Virus record (IMG/VR): IMGVR_UViG_2718217785_000001
DNA length: 40,734 bases
Direction: 5' to 3' (one strand)
Source: a virus
Lineage: Duplodnaviria > Heunggongvirae > Uroviricota > Caudoviricetes
Shown here: piece after piece, positions 27,109-34,994 of the stretch
How positions within the stretch are numbered: position 1 is the first letter of the stretch
Layout: the number at the start of each line of letters is the position of its first letter
Made by a program: the position numbers and the translations under genes
Notes under the pieces: model-generated
Databases searched by the model: none
The model's input: only the letters and a program-made list of their open reading frames with translations
Told to the model about the DNA's origin: nothing

Positions 27109-27279
27109 ATGTTTGTGAAACCTGTTAAAGGGCGGTCAGTGCCTGACCCTGCCCACGGCGACCTTTTGCCCGCCGAAGGGCGAAATGTTGATGAGAACAA
27201 CTACTGGCTGCGCCGTGAAGCAGCGGGTGATATCCGGCGCGTGAATAAAAAGGTGAACACCGATGACGATAAGCTTTAA
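27109..27279 (+). CDS. DUF2635-like small protein preceding tail sheath (Mu-like tail cluster)
   Basis: 56 aa ORF found manually (MFVKPVKGRSVPDPAHGDLLPAEG...), RBS GAGGA 5 nt upstream. Confidence 0.5.
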   Translation: MFVKPVKGRSVPDPAHGDLLPAEGRNVDENNYWLRREAAGDIRRVNKKVNTDDDKL

Positions 27280-28759
27280 CACCATTCCGTCGAATACGCT
27301 GGTTCCGCTGTTTTATGCGGAAATGGATAACCAGGCTGCGAATACTGCACAGGACAGCGGAGCATCGCTGCTGATTGGTCATGCCAATAACGGTGCAGAG
27401 ATTGTTGCCAACAGTCTGGTGCTGATGCCGTCGGCAGACTATGCACGCCAGATTTGTGGTGCGGGAAGTCAGCTGGCGCGTATGGTCGAGGCTTATCGCC
27501 AGACCGACCCGTTTGGTGAGCTGTATGTGATTGCCGTTCCGGAAGCCACAGGCGCGGCGGCAACGGTTAAGCTGACGGTGACCGGGGAAGCAACCGAAAG
27601 CGGCACGGTGAATGTCTATGTGGGACGTACCCGCGTGCAGGCTCCGGTGACCAACGGCGATAACGTCACGACGATTGCCAGCAGTATCCAGGATGCCATC
27701 AATGTCGTTCCGACTCTGCCGTTTACAGCTTCATCTTCGGCTGGCGTGGTCACACTGACCGCGCGTCATAAGGGGCTTTGCGGGAATGAAATTCCTGTCA
27801 GCCTCAATTACTACGGCTTCGGTGGGGGCGAAGTGCTGCCAGCGGGCGTACAGATTGCCGTGGCTACGGGGACCGCCGGAACGGGCTCTCCTGTTCTCAC
27901 CGGCGCGGTGGCTGCAATGGCGGATGAGCCGTTTGATTATATCGGCCTGCCGTTCAACGACACGGCCTCCGTTAACACGCTGGTGACCGAGATGAACGAT
28001 ACCAGTGGTCGCTGGAGCTATGCGCGTCAGCTGTATGGTCATGTGTATACGGCAAAGATCGGCACGCTGTCAGAACTGGTGACCGCAGGTGACCAGTTTA
28101 ACCAGCAGCACATTACCCTGGCGGGGTACGAAAAAGAGACCCAGACGCCTGCTGACGAGCTGGCGGCAAGCCGTACCGCCCGCGCAGCGGTGTTTATTCG
28201 CAACGATCCGGCACGTCCCACGCAGACCGGTGAGCTGGTGGGTATGCTGCCTGCGCCGAAGGGGAAACGGTTCACGATGACCGAACAACAGACCCTGCTG
28301 TCTCATGGCGTGGCAACGGCGTATGTCGAAAGCGGGGTACTGCGCATTCAGCGTGATGTCACCACGTACAGGAAAAACGCTTACGGGGTTGCGGATAACA
28401 GCTACCTCGACAGTGAGACGCTGCATACCAGCGCGTATGTACTGCGCAAACTGAAATCCGTCATTACCAGTAAGTACGGGCGTCACAAGCTTGCTAGTGA
28501 TGGTACCCGCTTTGGTCCCGGTCAGGCGATTGTCACCCCGGCGGTGATCAAAGGGGAACTGCTGGCAACCTACCGTCAGCTTGAGCGTGCGGGGATCGTG
28601 GAAAACTACGAACTTTTTAAGCAGTACCTGGTTGTGGAGCGTGATGCCAGCGATCCGAACCGCCTGAACACGCTGTTCCCGCCTGACTATGTTAACCAGT
28701 TGCGTGTCTTTGCCGTGGTTAACCAGTTCCGTCTTCAGTATTCAGAGGAGTCCGCATAA
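27263..28759 (+). CDS. Tail sheath protein (Mu L-like)
   Basis: 498 aa, position and size in Mu-like contractile tail cluster. Confidence 0.8.
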   Translation: MTISFNTIPSNTLVPLFYAEMDNQAANTAQDSGASLLIGHANNGAEIVANSLVLMPSADYARQICGAGSQLARMVEAYRQTDPFGELYVIAVPEATGAAATVKLTVTGEATESGTVNVYVGRTRVQAPVTNGDNVTTIASSIQDAINVVPTLPFTASSSAGVVTLTARHKGLCGNEIPVSLNYYGFGGGEVLPAGVQIAVATGTAGTGSPVLTGAVAAMADEPFDYIGLPFNDTASVNTLVTEMNDTSGRWSYARQLYGHVYTAKIGTLSELVTAGDQFNQQHITLAGYEKETQTPADELAASRTARAAVFIRNDPARPTQTGELVGMLPAPKGKRFTMTEQQTLLSHGVATAYVESGVLRIQRDVTTYRKNAYGVADNSYLDSETLHTSAYVLRKLKSVITSKYGRHKLASDGTRFGPGQAIVTPAVIKGELLATYRQLERAGIVENYELFKQYLVVERDASDPNRLNTLFPPDYVNQLRVFAVVNQFRLQYSEESA

Positions 28760-29115
28760 TGGCCCGTATCGGGGGAACCTGTTATTTCAAAATTGACGGT
28801 CAGCAGCTATCGCTGACCGGCGGCATTGAGGTGCCCATGAACAGGACGGTTAACGATGACATCATCGGTCTGGATGGTTCAGTGGACCGCAAGGAAACTC
28901 ACCGCGCGCCTTATGTCAAAGGAACCTTCAAGGTGCCGAAGAATTTTCCGGTGAGCAAAATCACCTCGTCTGATGAGATGACCATCACTGCCGAGCTGGC
29001 GAACGGTCAGGTCTATGTACTGTCGTCTGCCTGGCTGCACGGCGAAGCGAACCATAATGCCGAAGAAGGCACGGTTGATCTTGAGTTCCACGGTGAAGAA
29101 GGGGATTACCAGTAA
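28759..29115 (+). CDS. Tail tube protein (Mu M-like)
   Basis: 118 aa immediately after sheath. Confidence 0.7.
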   Translation: MARIGGTCYFKIDGQQLSLTGGIEVPMNRTVNDDIIGLDGSVDRKETHRAPYVKGTFKVPKNFPVSKITSSDEMTITAELANGQVYVLSSAWLHGEANHNAEEGTVDLEFHGEEGDYQ

Positions 29116-29384
29116 TGAAAGAGCTTGAGTTAAAGAAACCGATTATCGCTCATGGCGAGACACTCTCCGTACTGGAGTTTGATGAACCCACCGGGAAGGA
29201 TGTCCGCGAGCTGGGGTATCCTTACCAGATGAATCAGGATGAGTCCGTCAGACTTCTGGCGCATGTGGTGTCGAAATACATTGTGCGGCTGGCGAAAGTG
29301 CCGCAAAGCTCTGTCGACCAGATGTCTCCGGCAGACCTGAATGCAGCGGCGTGGCTTGTGGCTGGTTTTTTCCTCCAGGCCTGA
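29115..29384 (+). CDS. Tail assembly chaperone (G-like, frame 0 product)
   Basis: 89 aa between tube and tape measure; contains slippery heptamer near 3' end. Confidence 0.65.
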   Translation: MKELELKKPIIAHGETLSVLEFDEPTGKDVRELGYPYQMNQDESVRLLAHVVSKYIVRLAKVPQSSVDQMSPADLNAAAWLVAGFFLQA

Positions 29385-29533
29385 CGGCTGAATACCTCAC
29401 TGATCGCTTCTTTGACTGCGCCAGTTACTGGCGCATTAATCCCTTCGAATTGCTGAATATGCCGATCAGTGAAATTCCCTTGCTGGTCAGTCAGGCAAAC
29501 AGGATAGAGCAGGAGAAACGCACACATGGCTGA
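29351..29533 (+). CDS. Tail assembly chaperone -1 frameshift extension (GT-like fusion with 29115..29372)
   Basis: Overlapping -1 frame ORF entered at TTTTTTC (29366-29372); no independent RBS. Confidence 0.55.
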   Translation: MACGWFFPPGLTAEYLTDRFFDCASYWRINPFELLNMPISEIPLLVSQANRIEQEKRTHG

Positions 29534-31358
29534 ATTTGAGCTTAAGGCGTTGATCACCGGTGTCGACAGGCTTTCTCCGGCGCTGTCGAAAATGCAAAAG
29601 AAAATCCGGGGATTTAAACGCCAGGCGGAAGAAGCGTCACAGGGTGGGCTGGCGCTTGGTGGCGGACTGGCAGCGGGTCTGACGCTTTCCCTGAAATCTT
29701 ATGCCGATCAGGAAAACGCCGCCACCGGGCTGAAAGTCGCCATGATGGATGCGAACGGCGAGGTCGGAAAGAGCTTTCAGGACATCAATAAACTGGCTAT
29801 TGGCCTGGGTAACCAGCTACCCGGTACAACGGCTGATTTTCAGAACATGATGCAGATGCTGGTGCGTCAGGGGATCCCGGCAGAAAACATTCTTGGCGGT
29901 GTGGGTAAAGCGACGGCTTATCTTGCGGTACAACTGAAAAAAACACCGGAAGCGGCTGCTGAGTTTGCCGCAAAGATGCAGGATGCTACCGGAACGGCGT
30001 CAGAAGACATGATGGGGCTGTTCGACACTATCCAGAAGGCGTTTTATCTGGGCGTTGACGATACCAACATGTTGTCCTTCTTCACTAAAACCAGCTCTGT
30101 TCTGAAGATGGTGAACAAGGACGGTCTTCAGGCTGCACAGAGCCTTGCCCCCATCAGCGTCATGATGGATCAGATGGGGATGAACGGGGAGTCGGCAGGT
30201 AACGCCCTGCGAAAAGTTATCCAGTCCGGATTAAGCGTTAAGAAAATCAGGGACGTCAATAAAATCATGGCCCGCCAGAAACTCGGGGTACAGCTCGATT
30301 TTACTGACGGCAAAGGGAGTTTTGGCGGTCTTGATAACATGTTCAGGCAACTGGCAAAGCTGCGAAAACTGACCGACGTTAAACGAACTGGTGTACTTAA
30401 GGCAATATTTGGTGATGATGCCGAAACCCTTCAGGTGGTCAATGCGCTGATCGATAAAGGAAAGGATGGCTACGATCAGATCCAGCAGAAGATGAATAAA
30501 CAGGCCAGCCTGAATAAACGTGTTCAGGCACAGCTTGGTACGCTGTCCAACCTGTGGGAGGCAATGACAGGGACCGCAACTAACGGCCTTGCGGCTATTG
30601 GCGGCGCATTTTCTGGTGACGCTAAAAATATCACGCAATGGCTGGGGGAGTTGGGGGAAAAATTCACGAAGTTTGCGGATGAAAATCCCCGGGTTATTCG
30701 CGGCGTCGTCGGGCTTGCTGCCGGTCTTGCGATTCTGAAACTGGGATTGATGGGCGTGGGCAGTGCCATCAGTATTGTCAGCAGGATCATGTCGATGACG
30801 CCGATTGGCATGATTGCGACGGCGATTGCTCTGGCTGCGGGATTAATTATCACTAACTGGGATGTTGTCGGACCTTATTTCAAGAAGCTCTGGGAAACCA
30901 TTGGTCCTTATTTTGAGGCTGGCTGGGAACTCCTTAAGAAAGTTTTTGCCTGGTCGCCGCTGGGGATGGTGATCAATAACTGGGGGCCGGTTGTTAAGTG
31001 GTTTCAGGATATGTGGGACAAGCTGAAGCCAATTATTGAGTGGTTTACCGACAGTTCCGGTGACACGGTCGATGCCATTAACTCTGCGCAGTGGGGCGCG
31101 GGTGCTTATGATGCTTATGGGACGGGAATACCGGCACGGGGATACACTCCTTATCCGGCGGTGGATCCGGCTCAGGCAAACAACGCCTCCGATGCCACAG
31201 GCCCGAATCCCTTCATGATTAATAAAGCTACCGCGCCAAAAGTTGATGGTGAGATCAAGGTATCATTTATAAATATGCCACCAGGTATGCGGGTTACGGA
31301 AACACGCTCCAGTGGCATTGATATAAATCACGATGTTGGCTATACCCGATTTTGGTAG
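29526..31358 (+). CDS. Tail tape measure protein
   Basis: 610 aa, helical, Gly/Ala-rich TM-like segments, downstream of chaperone. Confidence 0.8.
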   Translation: MAEFELKALITGVDRLSPALSKMQKKIRGFKRQAEEASQGGLALGGGLAAGLTLSLKSYADQENAATGLKVAMMDANGEVGKSFQDINKLAIGLGNQLPGTTADFQNMMQMLVRQGIPAENILGGVGKATAYLAVQLKKTPEAAAEFAAKMQDATGTASEDMMGLFDTIQKAFYLGVDDTNMLSFFTKTSSVLKMVNKDGLQAAQSLAPISVMMDQMGMNGESAGNALRKVIQSGLSVKKIRDVNKIMARQKLGVQLDFTDGKGSFGGLDNMFRQLAKLRKLTDVKRTGVLKAIFGDDAETLQVVNALIDKGKDGYDQIQQKMNKQASLNKRVQAQLGTLSNLWEAMTGTATNGLAAIGGAFSGDAKNITQWLGELGEKFTKFADENPRVIRGVVGLAAGLAILKLGLMGVGSAISIVSRIMSMTPIGMIATAIALAAGLIITNWDVVGPYFKKLWETIGPYFEAGWELLKKVFAWSPLGMVINNWGPVVKWFQDMWDKLKPIIEWFTDSSGDTVDAINSAQWGAGAYDAYGTGIPARGYTPYPAVDPAQANNASDATGPNPFMINKATAPKVDGEIKVSFINMPPGMRVTETRSSGIDINHDVGYTRFW

Positions 31359-31449: not shown

Positions 31450-31980
31450 ATGAAAGGCTATATCACAGCAAGTGTAATTCTTGGAGCAGCGGCTATTTTT
31501 TCATCTCTCATAATCTCTGGCAACATCTCCTTTAAAGATGAACATATTATTCAGTTATCTGGAGGAGCCATAAAACTTGGTGATGTTTATAAAGAAAATA
31601 AATTGATAAGTGCAAAGATTATTTTTCCAGATAATCAGGGTGAACAGATTCTTGTTGTCGACGGCAATCCTGAAAACTTTAAGGAGGATTTTCAGGAGAA
31701 ATTAAATAAAGTAATAAAAACTTTAAATGCGTCAAAGAAAAAAGATGAAGAGAAAGTTAGTCTGGATAATTTAAGTGTTATTGAAGAGTCTAAACTAGAG
31801 CTCGTTTCTGCGGTGCGTTACTCTGCTCAGTATGTTCCTATGTTTACTCTGACGCTGGACAAAAAAGAAATTACCATGCCTAAAAATACGGTAATATTTC
31901 CATTTGCCAGCGATGAAACAGCTAAGTATTTAAATGAACAACAGCAAAAGTATAAAGATTCGTTGTTTCTGACTCGCTAA
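31450..31980 (+). CDS. Low-GC moron encoding secreted or membrane-anchored protein, unknown function
   Basis: 176 aa, N-terminal hydrophobic signal/anchor, Lys/Glu-rich, AT-rich, own promoter-like element and terminator, inserted between tape measure and baseplate genes. Confidence 0.6.
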   Translation: MKGYITASVILGAAAIFSSLIISGNISFKDEHIIQLSGGAIKLGDVYKENKLISAKIIFPDNQGEQILVVDGNPENFKEDFQEKLNKVIKTLNASKKKDEEKVSLDNLSVIEESKLELVSAVRYSAQYVPMFTLTLDKKEITMPKNTVIFPFASDETAKYLNEQQQKYKDSLFLTR

Positions 31981-33370: not shown

Positions 33371-34446
33371 ACGACAATGTCACGCTACGGGTAAATGGCC
33401 GGGAGTGGAATGGCTGGACATCGGTGCGCATCGGTGCCGGTATTGAACGGCTGGCGCGGGATTTCAGTGTGGAGATCACCCGCCAGTGGCCGGGTGATGA
33501 GGGTATCACCACGCTTCAGCCGCGCATTAAAAACGGTTCAAAAGTGGAGGTGCTGATTGGTGATGAGCTGGTGATCACCGGCTGGGTGGAGGCTACGCCC
33601 GTTCGTTACGATGCCCGTTCGGTCAGCACCGGTATTGCCGGACGCAGTCTGACCGCTGACCTGATTGATTGTGCAGCCGAACCGACACAGTTTAACGGAC
33701 GATCACTGGTACAGATTGCGCAGGCGCTTGCTGCGCCTTTCGGCATTGAGGTGGTGAACAGCGATGCGCCGTCGGGTGTTATTCCGGATGTCCAGCCTGA
33801 TCACGGTGAAACGGTGATCGAGGTGATCAACAAAATACTCGGTCAGCAGCAGGCACTGGCTTACGACGACCCGCACGGCAGGCTGGTGATTGGCGGTATT
33901 GGCTCAACGCGGGCACATACTGCGCTGGTACTCGGGGAAAACATCCTTTCCTGCGATACGGAGAAGAGTATCCGGGAGCGGTTTTCTGTTTACCAGGTGG
34001 CGGGGCAGCGTGCCGGAAACGACGATGATTTCGGTGAGGCCACCACCACCGCGCTGCGGGCCCGCACAGAGGACGCATTTATTGCCCGTTACCGTCCGAT
34101 GTATATCAGGCAGACAGGGCAGGCTACGGGGGCAGGCTGTATTGCCCGTGCGGACTTTGAAGCCAGACAACGGGCGGCGCGGACGGATGAAACCACCTAT
34201 GTGGTGCAGGGCTGGCGACAGGGTAACGGTACGCTGTGGCAGCCCAACCAGCGGGTGATTGTCTTTGATCCTGTCTGTGGTTTCGACAATACCGAACTGC
34301 TTGTTTCGGAAGTCACGTTTACTCAGGACCAGAACGGCACCCTGACGGAAATCCGTGTCGGCCCACCTGATGCTTATCTGCCTGAACCCGAAGCCCCCGG
34401 CGCGCGGAAAAAGAAAAAAGCCAGAGTACAGGAGGACCCGTTCTGA
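33367..34446 (+). CDS. Baseplate hub / tail protein (Mu P-like)
   Basis: 359 aa, position in baseplate cluster. Confidence 0.7.
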   Translation: MNDNVTLRVNGREWNGWTSVRIGAGIERLARDFSVEITRQWPGDEGITTLQPRIKNGSKVEVLIGDELVITGWVEATPVRYDARSVSTGIAGRSLTADLIDCAAEPTQFNGRSLVQIAQALAAPFGIEVVNSDAPSGVIPDVQPDHGETVIEVINKILGQQQALAYDDPHGRLVIGGIGSTRAHTALVLGENILSCDTEKSIRERFSVYQVAGQRAGNDDDFGEATTTALRARTEDAFIARYRPMYIRQTGQATGAGCIARADFEARQRAARTDETTYVVQGWRQGNGTLWQPNQRVIVFDPVCGFDNTELLVSEVTFTQDQNGTLTEIRVGPPDAYLPEPEAPGARKKKKARVQEDPF

Positions 34447-34994
34447 TGAGGACGATTGAAGCCATGCAGCGACAACTCCTCGGCCTGATTGGGCGGGCGG
34501 TGGTGAAAAGCATCAGTGCCGCCACGAAATGTCAGACCGTGGATGTGTCCCTGATTGCCGGTGAACCCAAAGCCGGGGTTGAACATCTTGAACCCTACGG
34601 TTTTACCGCAAGGGCAAACAGCGGTGCGGAAGCGGTGGTGTTGTTTCCGGATGGTGACCGTTCTCATGCGGTGGTTGTTACGGTGTCGGACCGGCGCTAC
34701 CGCCTGAAAGGGCTGCAGACGGGTGAGGTGGCTGTCTATGACGATCAGGGGCAGTCCGTGACGCTGACCCGGGAGGGGATCGTGGTGGACGGTGCAGGTA
34801 AAACGATCACGTTTCGCAATTCACCTAAAGCACGTTTTGAAATGGACCTGGAAGTGACAGGACAGGTGAAAGACCTGTGCGACTCCAGCGGCACCACCAT
34901 GTCAGCGATGCGGCTTGCCTATAACGGGCATCGTCACAGAGAGAACGGTCAGGGCAGTAACACCGACAAACCTGATAAAGCGATGGAGGCATGA
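34446..34994 (+). CDS. Baseplate spike protein (gpV / Mu gp45-like)
   Basis: 182 aa, position and size. Confidence 0.65.
   Translation: MRTIEAMQRQLLGLIGRAVVKSISAATKCQTVDVSLIAGEPKAGVEHLEPYGFTARANSGAEAVVLFPDGDRSHAVVVTVSDRRYRLKGLQTGEVAVYDDQGQSVTLTREGIVVDGAGKTITFRNSPKARFEMDLEVTGQVKDLCDSSGTTMSAMRLAYNGHRHRENGQGSNTDKPDKAMEA

Follow-up and report, generated by a model that had tools for sequence, protein, structure and literature searches.

Gene layout at the 3' end of the chaperone gene

We analysed a 40,734-nt stretch of DNA from a virus of the Caudoviricetes (IMG/VR record IMGVR_UViG_2718217785_000001), referred to below as the window. The window is an SfV-type prophage. It belongs with the phages of the SfV/SfI/SfII type, and its region 28700-29700 is 98-99% identical to SfV, SfI, SfII and Escherichia phage vB_EcoM-689R6. 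The tail module is Mu-like in its sheath, tube and DNA circulation protein, as judged from Pfam and from the annotation of the relatives (Table 1). The tube gene lies directly 5' of the tail assembly chaperone gene, and its stop codon overlaps the chaperone start. The chaperone gene is followed by 141 nt without a 0-frame gene, by the tape measure gene and, further downstream on the plus strand, by a Mu N-like DNA circulation gene. The 0-frame chaperone product scores 55.3 bits against PF10109 (cut-off 25), with residues 4-86 aligned on profile positions 2-78, and also matches the PHROGs family phrog_166 'tail protein' with E=4e-23.

Table 1. Features of the tail module around the chaperone gene of the window
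Feature	Position	Strand	Basis
Tail sheath gene	27263-28759	+	ORF list, Pfam search
Tail tube gene, 118 aa	28759..29115	+	Pfam PF10618 Tail_tube, E=2.4e-33; relatives annotated tail tube / Mup40-like
Tail assembly chaperone gene, 0-frame product 'G', 89 aa	29115..29384	+	Pfam PF10109 Phage_TAC_7
Slippery heptamer T TTT TTC, X XXY YYZ register	29366..29372	+	0-frame codons TTT 29367, TTC 29370
-1 extension ('T' part), 53 sense codons + TGA 29531-29533	29372..29533	+	-1 frame reading, coding bias, phrog_32181
AGGAG, putative Shine-Dalgarno of the tape measure gene	29511..29515	+	10 nt before ATG; junction sequence AGAGCAGGAGAAACGCACACATGGCTGA
Tape measure gene, 610 aa	29526..31358	+	Pfam PF10145 PhageMin_Tail, E=1.3e-26

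At the end of the chaperone gene, the 0-frame codons are GGT (29364-29366), TTT (29367-29369) and TTC (29370-29372), followed by CTC, CAG, GCC and TGA (29382-29384). The 0-frame C-terminus is ...VAGFFLQA*, with the TGA three sense codons past the heptamer. The -1 frame resumes at CCT 29372 and translates as PPGLTAEYL...EKRTHG. The predicted fused product, termed GT, corresponds to join(29115..29372, 29372..29533) and would comprise 139 aa (about 15.6 kDa), with the junction peptide ...AGFFPPGLTAEY... and with the sequence ...LVAGFFPPGLTAEYLTDR spanning the frameshift junction. The TGA of the extension falls 7 nt inside the tape measure gene, whose ATG at 29526 lies 5 nt before it, and the two reading frames overlap by 8 nt. 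The AGGAG sits within the final codons of the extension and, from its position, probably serves the tape measure ATG. The +1/-2 frame at the chaperone end is open for 16 codons only (29341-29391), and it is the -1 frame that carries the extension. The earlier note on this DNA had placed T TTT TTC in a shortly ending chaperone gene, with '54 more codons to 29533' in the overlapping -1 frame. Direct reading of the sequence and the ORF list returned the same coordinates and the correct codon register, and the 54 codons resolve into 53 sense codons and the stop.

The heptamer by itself means little statistically. TTTTTTY occurs 28 times in the window against an expectation of 20.4 +/- 5.6 and is not enriched. 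The configuration of a heptamer with a -1 continuation, on the other hand, is rare in the window: six-frame ORFs with a minimum length of 80 aa contain 67 in-register heptamers, of which only two lie near a stop codon (at most 25 codons away) with a long -1 continuation that outruns this stop by at least 30 codons. The other such heptamer is TTTTTTC 34413-34419 on the minus strand, within the minus-strand ORF 34374-34667, which is antisense to plus-strand baseplate genes and which we take to be an antisense shadow ORF.

We also found a 176-aa ORF (31450-31980, plus strand) between the tape measure and DNA circulation genes, with a GC content of about 31-34% compared to about 53% in its flanks. 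It is absent from SfV, in which the two neighbouring genes are 45 nt apart. Its product has a hydrophobic N-terminus and matches phrog_5485 (unknown function) with E=4e-108, and it has no match in Pfam or PADLOC. This ORF looks like a moron gained by horizontal transfer.

Conservation of the heptamer and coding by the -1 frame

We compared the locus among eight intact phage relatives. SfV, with 98% identity, marks one end of the range, and the other end is formed by the strongly diverged SfIV, phiP27, ST64B (where the site lies in gene sb15), Yersinia YeP1, Edwardsiella EPP-1 and Pantoea AH07. T TTT TTC or T TTT TTT is found at the same codon in all eight, and each has an extension of 52-53 codons that stops 7-10 nt into the tape measure gene. 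The 0-frame tails past the heptamer, ranging from 3 to 22 codons, are unrelated in sequence. Salmonella phage 118970_sal3 (L008; NC_031940, 5459-9936) was left out of the comparisons on account of frame errors in three of its tail genes: the sheath is split into three CDSs and the tape measure gene into two, while the chaperone region has lost its frame. Such a pattern points to indels from sequencing or assembly and not to a biological cause.

A scan of IMG/VR returned only copies that are 99-100% identical and added no diversity. The T-run is exactly six in 80/80 IMG/VR copies. For more diverse relatives, we used a genome collection with one genome per species. To avoid circularity, the query was restricted to chaperone residues 1-84, which lie upstream of the heptamer. 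This search retrieved 25 loci, among them Derxia gummosa and a Methylococcales MAG, with protein identities of 36-100%. An in-register heptamer with an extension of 50-59 codons is present in 25/25 loci. The fetched DNA includes the tape measure start in 24 of them, and in each of these 24 the extension stops within an interval that reaches from 2 nt upstream to 13 nt downstream of this start. The earlier note had called for a comparison with related tails and had named loss of the -1 frame ORF in related phages as a ground for rejecting the site. The site is conserved in every relative examined, both in the eight phage records and in the 25 loci, and the extension is kept together with a signature of purifying selection (see below).

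Synonymous positions in the 23 diverged loci were informative. The codon before Phe-Phe ends in T in 23/23, be it a codon for Gly, Arg or Asn, and TTT encodes the first Phe in 23/23 as well. The two codons preceding those that build the heptamer, in comparison, use all four nucleotides at their third positions. The invariant synonymous positions are not required by the protein sequence, while a slippery heptamer does require them. One subfamily has T7 instead of T6. In every lineage, selection has preserved the codon register of the T-run and its length of 6-7, without lengthening it. It is this comparison that decides in favour of the site, as conservation among the relatives goes far beyond chance.

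In the loci L096, L101, L107, L108, L109 and L116, the heptamer region (about 1449-1467) reads G GGT TTT TTC. Two in-register heptamers, G GGT TTT and T TTT TTC, overlap in this sequence, and both would lead to an identical fused protein. It is possible that the double heptamer raises the slip frequency in these loci.

We then investigated the extension itself. Substitutions at the three -1-frame codon positions number 9/7/28 between the window and EPP-1 and 6/3/25 between SfIV and phiP27. In the first 26 extension codons, which lie upstream of every conceivable internal start, the two pairs pooled give 5/4/26 (binomial P=8.6e-7). This third-position excess indicates that the extension is under purifying selection as a protein. 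The extension matches phrog_32181, a 63-residue family of unknown function, with E=4e-40.

In most relatives, the -1 frame has no start of its own to account for this coding. Its GTG at 29351 in the window is not preceded by a Shine-Dalgarno sequence. In AH07, SfIV, phiP27, ST64B and YeP1, no ATG, GTG or TTG occurs in the -1 frame before the conserved extension core, and in SfIV no start codon appears until 4 codons from the extension end. Furthermore, three relatives have a -1-frame stop 21-30 nt upstream of the heptamer. The extension can therefore be entered only by ribosomes that translate the chaperone frame, either at the heptamer or in its immediate vicinity.

Proposed mechanism, competing readings and efficiency

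The G/GT type of tail assembly chaperone frameshift is said to have been set out as a class by Xu, Hendrix and Duda in 2004. Members of this class make two proteins with a common N-terminus in a fixed ratio, and tail assembly needs both. The window has the sequence-level features of this class: the chaperone pair lies between the tube and tape measure genes, the -1 ORF overlaps the chaperone 3' end and lacks its own translation start, an in-register slippery sequence is found in the overlap, and the arrangement is kept despite divergence. A G/GT-like programmed -1 frameshift was the central proposal of the earlier note, and what it predicts at the level of sequence (position, register, a conserved coding -1 ORF and the lack of an own start) is borne out. 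We consider a functional programmed -1 ribosomal frameshift of the G/GT (P2 E/E+E') type to be the most probable reading, with a probability of roughly 0.88. The residual doubt concerns mostly whether the ribosome or RNA polymerase would slip, and the fused product is a predicted one.

In the proposed mechanism, most ribosomes would read GGT TTT TTC CTC CAG GCC TGA and release the 89-aa protein. A minority would slip with tRNA-Phe in the P site on UUU and tRNA-Phe in the A site on UUC, and both tRNAs would re-pair one base back on UUU UUU, where they would still be cognate. The slipped ribosomes would go on with CCT CCA GGC..., and their 139-aa product would consist of the common first 86 residues and a 53-residue C-terminal domain. 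If the products act as lambda G and GT do, the N-terminal part common to both may coat the tape measure protein while the extra domain recruits tube subunits. In that case, the frequency of slipping would determine a fixed ratio in which the two proteins are supplied to tail assembly.

The same G-F-F-P-P... fusion would also be made if RNA polymerase added one U on the T6 run and the minority mRNA were translated normally. A one-base insertion in the T-run yields exactly the same protein, and sequence analysis cannot separate the two routes. The T7 of one subfamily is in favour of such transcriptional slippage, as is the finding that E. coli genes avoid U7 and A7 in every frame, for which slippage during transcription is a possible reason (PMC4066793). 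However, efficient slippage by bacterial RNA polymerase has been described for runs of 9 A or T, and shorter runs needed a nascent-RNA hairpin immediately 5' (PMC5009743); the run here is 6, and the 40 nt upstream of it contain no significant or conserved hairpin. The restriction of the run to 6-7, in register, in all lineages also argues against this route, as does a passage in PMC3091744, citing Christie 2002, that describes the homologous P2 site as a translational frameshift. Slippage by the polymerase is thus improbable, although it takes up most of the probability that the ribosomal frameshift leaves.

Alternatively, the -1 ORF could be an independent gene for a separate 60-aa protein starting at GTG 29351. 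Database entries lend this some credit: ON470584 (vB_EcoM-689R6) annotates a CDS equivalent to 29351-29533 as 'hypothetical protein', PHROGs holds phrog_32181 as a stand-alone family that the 60-aa ORF matches with E=2e-41, and EPP-1 has an ATG at the position of the GTG. The missing Shine-Dalgarno sequence, the five relatives without a -1 start before the conserved core and the three in which an upstream stop closes the -1 frame all speak against it, and so does SfIV, whose extension is under purifying selection even though no start is available until near the end. We therefore regard a separate gene as very improbable. Least probable of all, to the point of being negligible, is that the site is a coincidence, namely a by-product of a conserved Phe-Phe next to a non-coding spacer, with no second product. 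It is true that TTTTTTY is no commoner in the window than expected and that conservation of Phe-Phe as protein explains part of the T-run from the 0 frame. Nevertheless, Phe-Phe leaves both the invariant preceding third-position T and the invariant TTT unexplained. A spacer would show no third-position periodicity in one frame and would not keep a 50-59-codon ORF across 36-100% protein identity, and the divergence of the relatives excludes recent copies of one sequence.

The ribosomal frameshift raises the question of stimulators, among which the earlier note had suggested a downstream hairpin or pseudoknot; neither folding nor Rfam revealed one in conserved form. Over the 50 nt past the heptamer, the folding z-scores of 18 relatives and P2 are scattered around zero (window +1.15), and a stable hairpin within these 50 nt is present in L105 and L112 only. 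Rfam returned no frameshift element, its sole hit being a chance CRISPR-repeat match (E=0.52). No Shine-Dalgarno-like stimulator or nascent-RNA hairpin was found upstream, and none is conserved there. A 105-nt fold of the window reaches z=-2.09, mostly from the stem 29417-29435 (plus strand), which is a perfect 8-bp helix with a 3-nt loop, UGCGCCAG UUA CUGGCGCA, located 44 nt downstream of the heptamer in the codons for a conserved ASYWR motif. Its palindromic core is also found in EPP-1 and AH07. We rejected this stem as a stimulator, since it is too distant for a classical one and is absent from the SfIV/ST64B subfamily. No hairpin was found in P2 and its relatives either (PMC3091744). Given that no stimulator was found, it is probable that the heptamer works by itself or is helped by a context effect that is as yet unrecognised.

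Published measurements in E. coli bear on how well such a heptamer could work. Among A-site motifs, U_UU.Y ranks second in its tendency to shift, and the list of usable heptamers contains U_UU.U_UU.C, which IS elements employ (PMC4066793). In a reporter, UUUUUUC gave 0.12% when bare; the IS911 stimulator raised this value to 0.9% and the IS3 pseudoknot to 7.6%, while the lambda heptamer GGGAAAG gave 0.28% when bare in the same reporter (PMC4066793 supplement). The native G:GT ratio of lambda is about 30:1, and P2-type sites are reported to exceed the efficiency of lambda, roughly 1 in 30, by a factor of 2-3 (PMC5009743). The difference between 0.28% and about 30:1 for lambda indicates that reporter values obtained without the native context understate native levels. 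The low bare value of UUUUUUC, the reported rank of P2-type sites above lambda and the lack of a conserved structure or Shine-Dalgarno-like element led us to a further idea, which we consider doubtful: the site might work at a P2-like level of several percent without known stimulators, through a signal unrecognised in bacteria. Candidates for such a signal, put forward at the same low odds, are the conserved hydrophobic nascent peptide ...[VI]-x-[GRN]-F-F, which is shared in outline with P2 ...VVGF, or the context of flanking bases.

Annotation of the site and comparison with P2, lambda and Mu

This kind of frameshift is well known and amounts to textbook biology, but the site is unannotated in the SfV-type lineage in every record examined. 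None of the 9 phage records examined contains a joined CDS. The segment is present in 917/5,426 complete E. coli genomes, and among the matches listed (12 E. coli records) only the 89-aa protein is named under the match. In full-text literature searches, the site was undescribed in SfV, SfI, SfII, SfIV, ST64B and phiP27, although Xu et al. 2004 may list orf13 of SfV. Three database proteins span the whole fused query and could have been naturally fused genes. The point at which the frame switches differs among them without any pattern, and each protein stems from a single contig, in one case with about 2x coverage. We rejected them as indel artefacts; no genuine fused protein was found in the database.

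The free-standing status of phrog_32181 and the separate hypothetical protein of vB_EcoM-689R6 appear to be consequences of an unrecognised frameshift. The value of the finding is practical, in that public annotations consistently miss the second product. Recognition of the site would give phrog_32181 a function, as the C-terminal domain of a frameshifted chaperone, and fills a gap of roughly 140 nt that is apparently non-coding in these genomes.

The closest known system is E/E+E' of P2, in which a -1 frameshift occurs at T TTT TTG between the genes FII and T. P2 gpE also belongs to PF10109 (47.8 bits), with P2 residues 7-85 on the same profile positions 2-78 as residues 4-86 of the window protein. 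The two shift sites fall at the same profile position, 78 of 79, at the end of PF10109. The heptamer codon is number 84 of 91 in P2 and 85 of 89 in the window, the extension comprises 57 and 53 codons, respectively, and in both phages its stop lies 7 nt inside the tape measure gene (gene T in P2). An hhalign comparison of a profile of 18 fused products with P2 E+E' aligned 120 columns (E=9.5e-6, 83% probability), placing GFF over GFL. Folding and PMC3091744 agree that P2, like the window, has no downstream hairpin. On the basis of these comparisons, the window site can be regarded as the true counterpart of P2 E/E+E'.

There are also differences from P2. The P2 heptamer ends in G, which places a Leu codon (UUG) in the A site, while that of the window family ends in C or T, which places Phe (UUY) there. 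The P2 site is experimentally established, whereas that of the window is predicted from sequence. Pairwise BLASTP between the window and P2 gave no similarity, and the rest of the tail module is Mu-like in the window rather than P2-like. The extension had no hit to PF06528 (Phage_P2_GpE) at E<=1, belongs to a different PHROG from that of P2 and aligned, as a profile, only weakly with P2 E' (E=1.2e-3, 33 columns). It may thus be a distant relative of P2 E' at best, and not a member of PF06528 as defined. A sequence search of the PDB returned only noise (light-harvesting proteins), with no significant stretch.

The lambda G/GT site (G GGA AAG) occupies the same genomic position, between the major tail subunit and tape measure genes. 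In lambda, two proteins with a shared N-terminus are made in a fixed ratio, and neither is found in the virion (PMC5009743). The window follows the same logic, and the two systems are likened here by position and logic. Lambda has another slippery sequence, other tRNAs and a siphovirus tail, and its ratio of about 30:1 is a measured one.

Mu, whose tail assembly chaperone is gp41, has the same tail module as the window, in the same gene order: sheath, tube, chaperone, tape measure and DNA circulation protein. Mu is reported to use a -2 shift (PMC5009743, PMC2628397). A stop in its -1 frame lies 107 nt short of the tape measure gene, towards which the -2 frame alone stays open. Mu gp41 has 144 aa and belongs to PF23746 (Gp41_Mu; 119.5 bits), whereas the window chaperone matched PF10109 only and did not match PF23746 in Pfam at E<=0.01. 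The Mu -2 ORF aligned with the extension profile with E=1.9e-4 over 28 columns, and a reversed-sequence control reached E=9e-3; homology of the Mu and window extensions is therefore suggestive only. The description of the site as one 'here in a Mu-like tail' thus holds for the tail module and not for the shift, which is a P2-like -1 rather than the -2 of Mu. A Mu-type tail module can evidently carry a P2-type -1 chaperone shift instead of Mu's -2. This is in line with the idea of a conserved two-product arrangement in which the route to the second frame is interchangeable.
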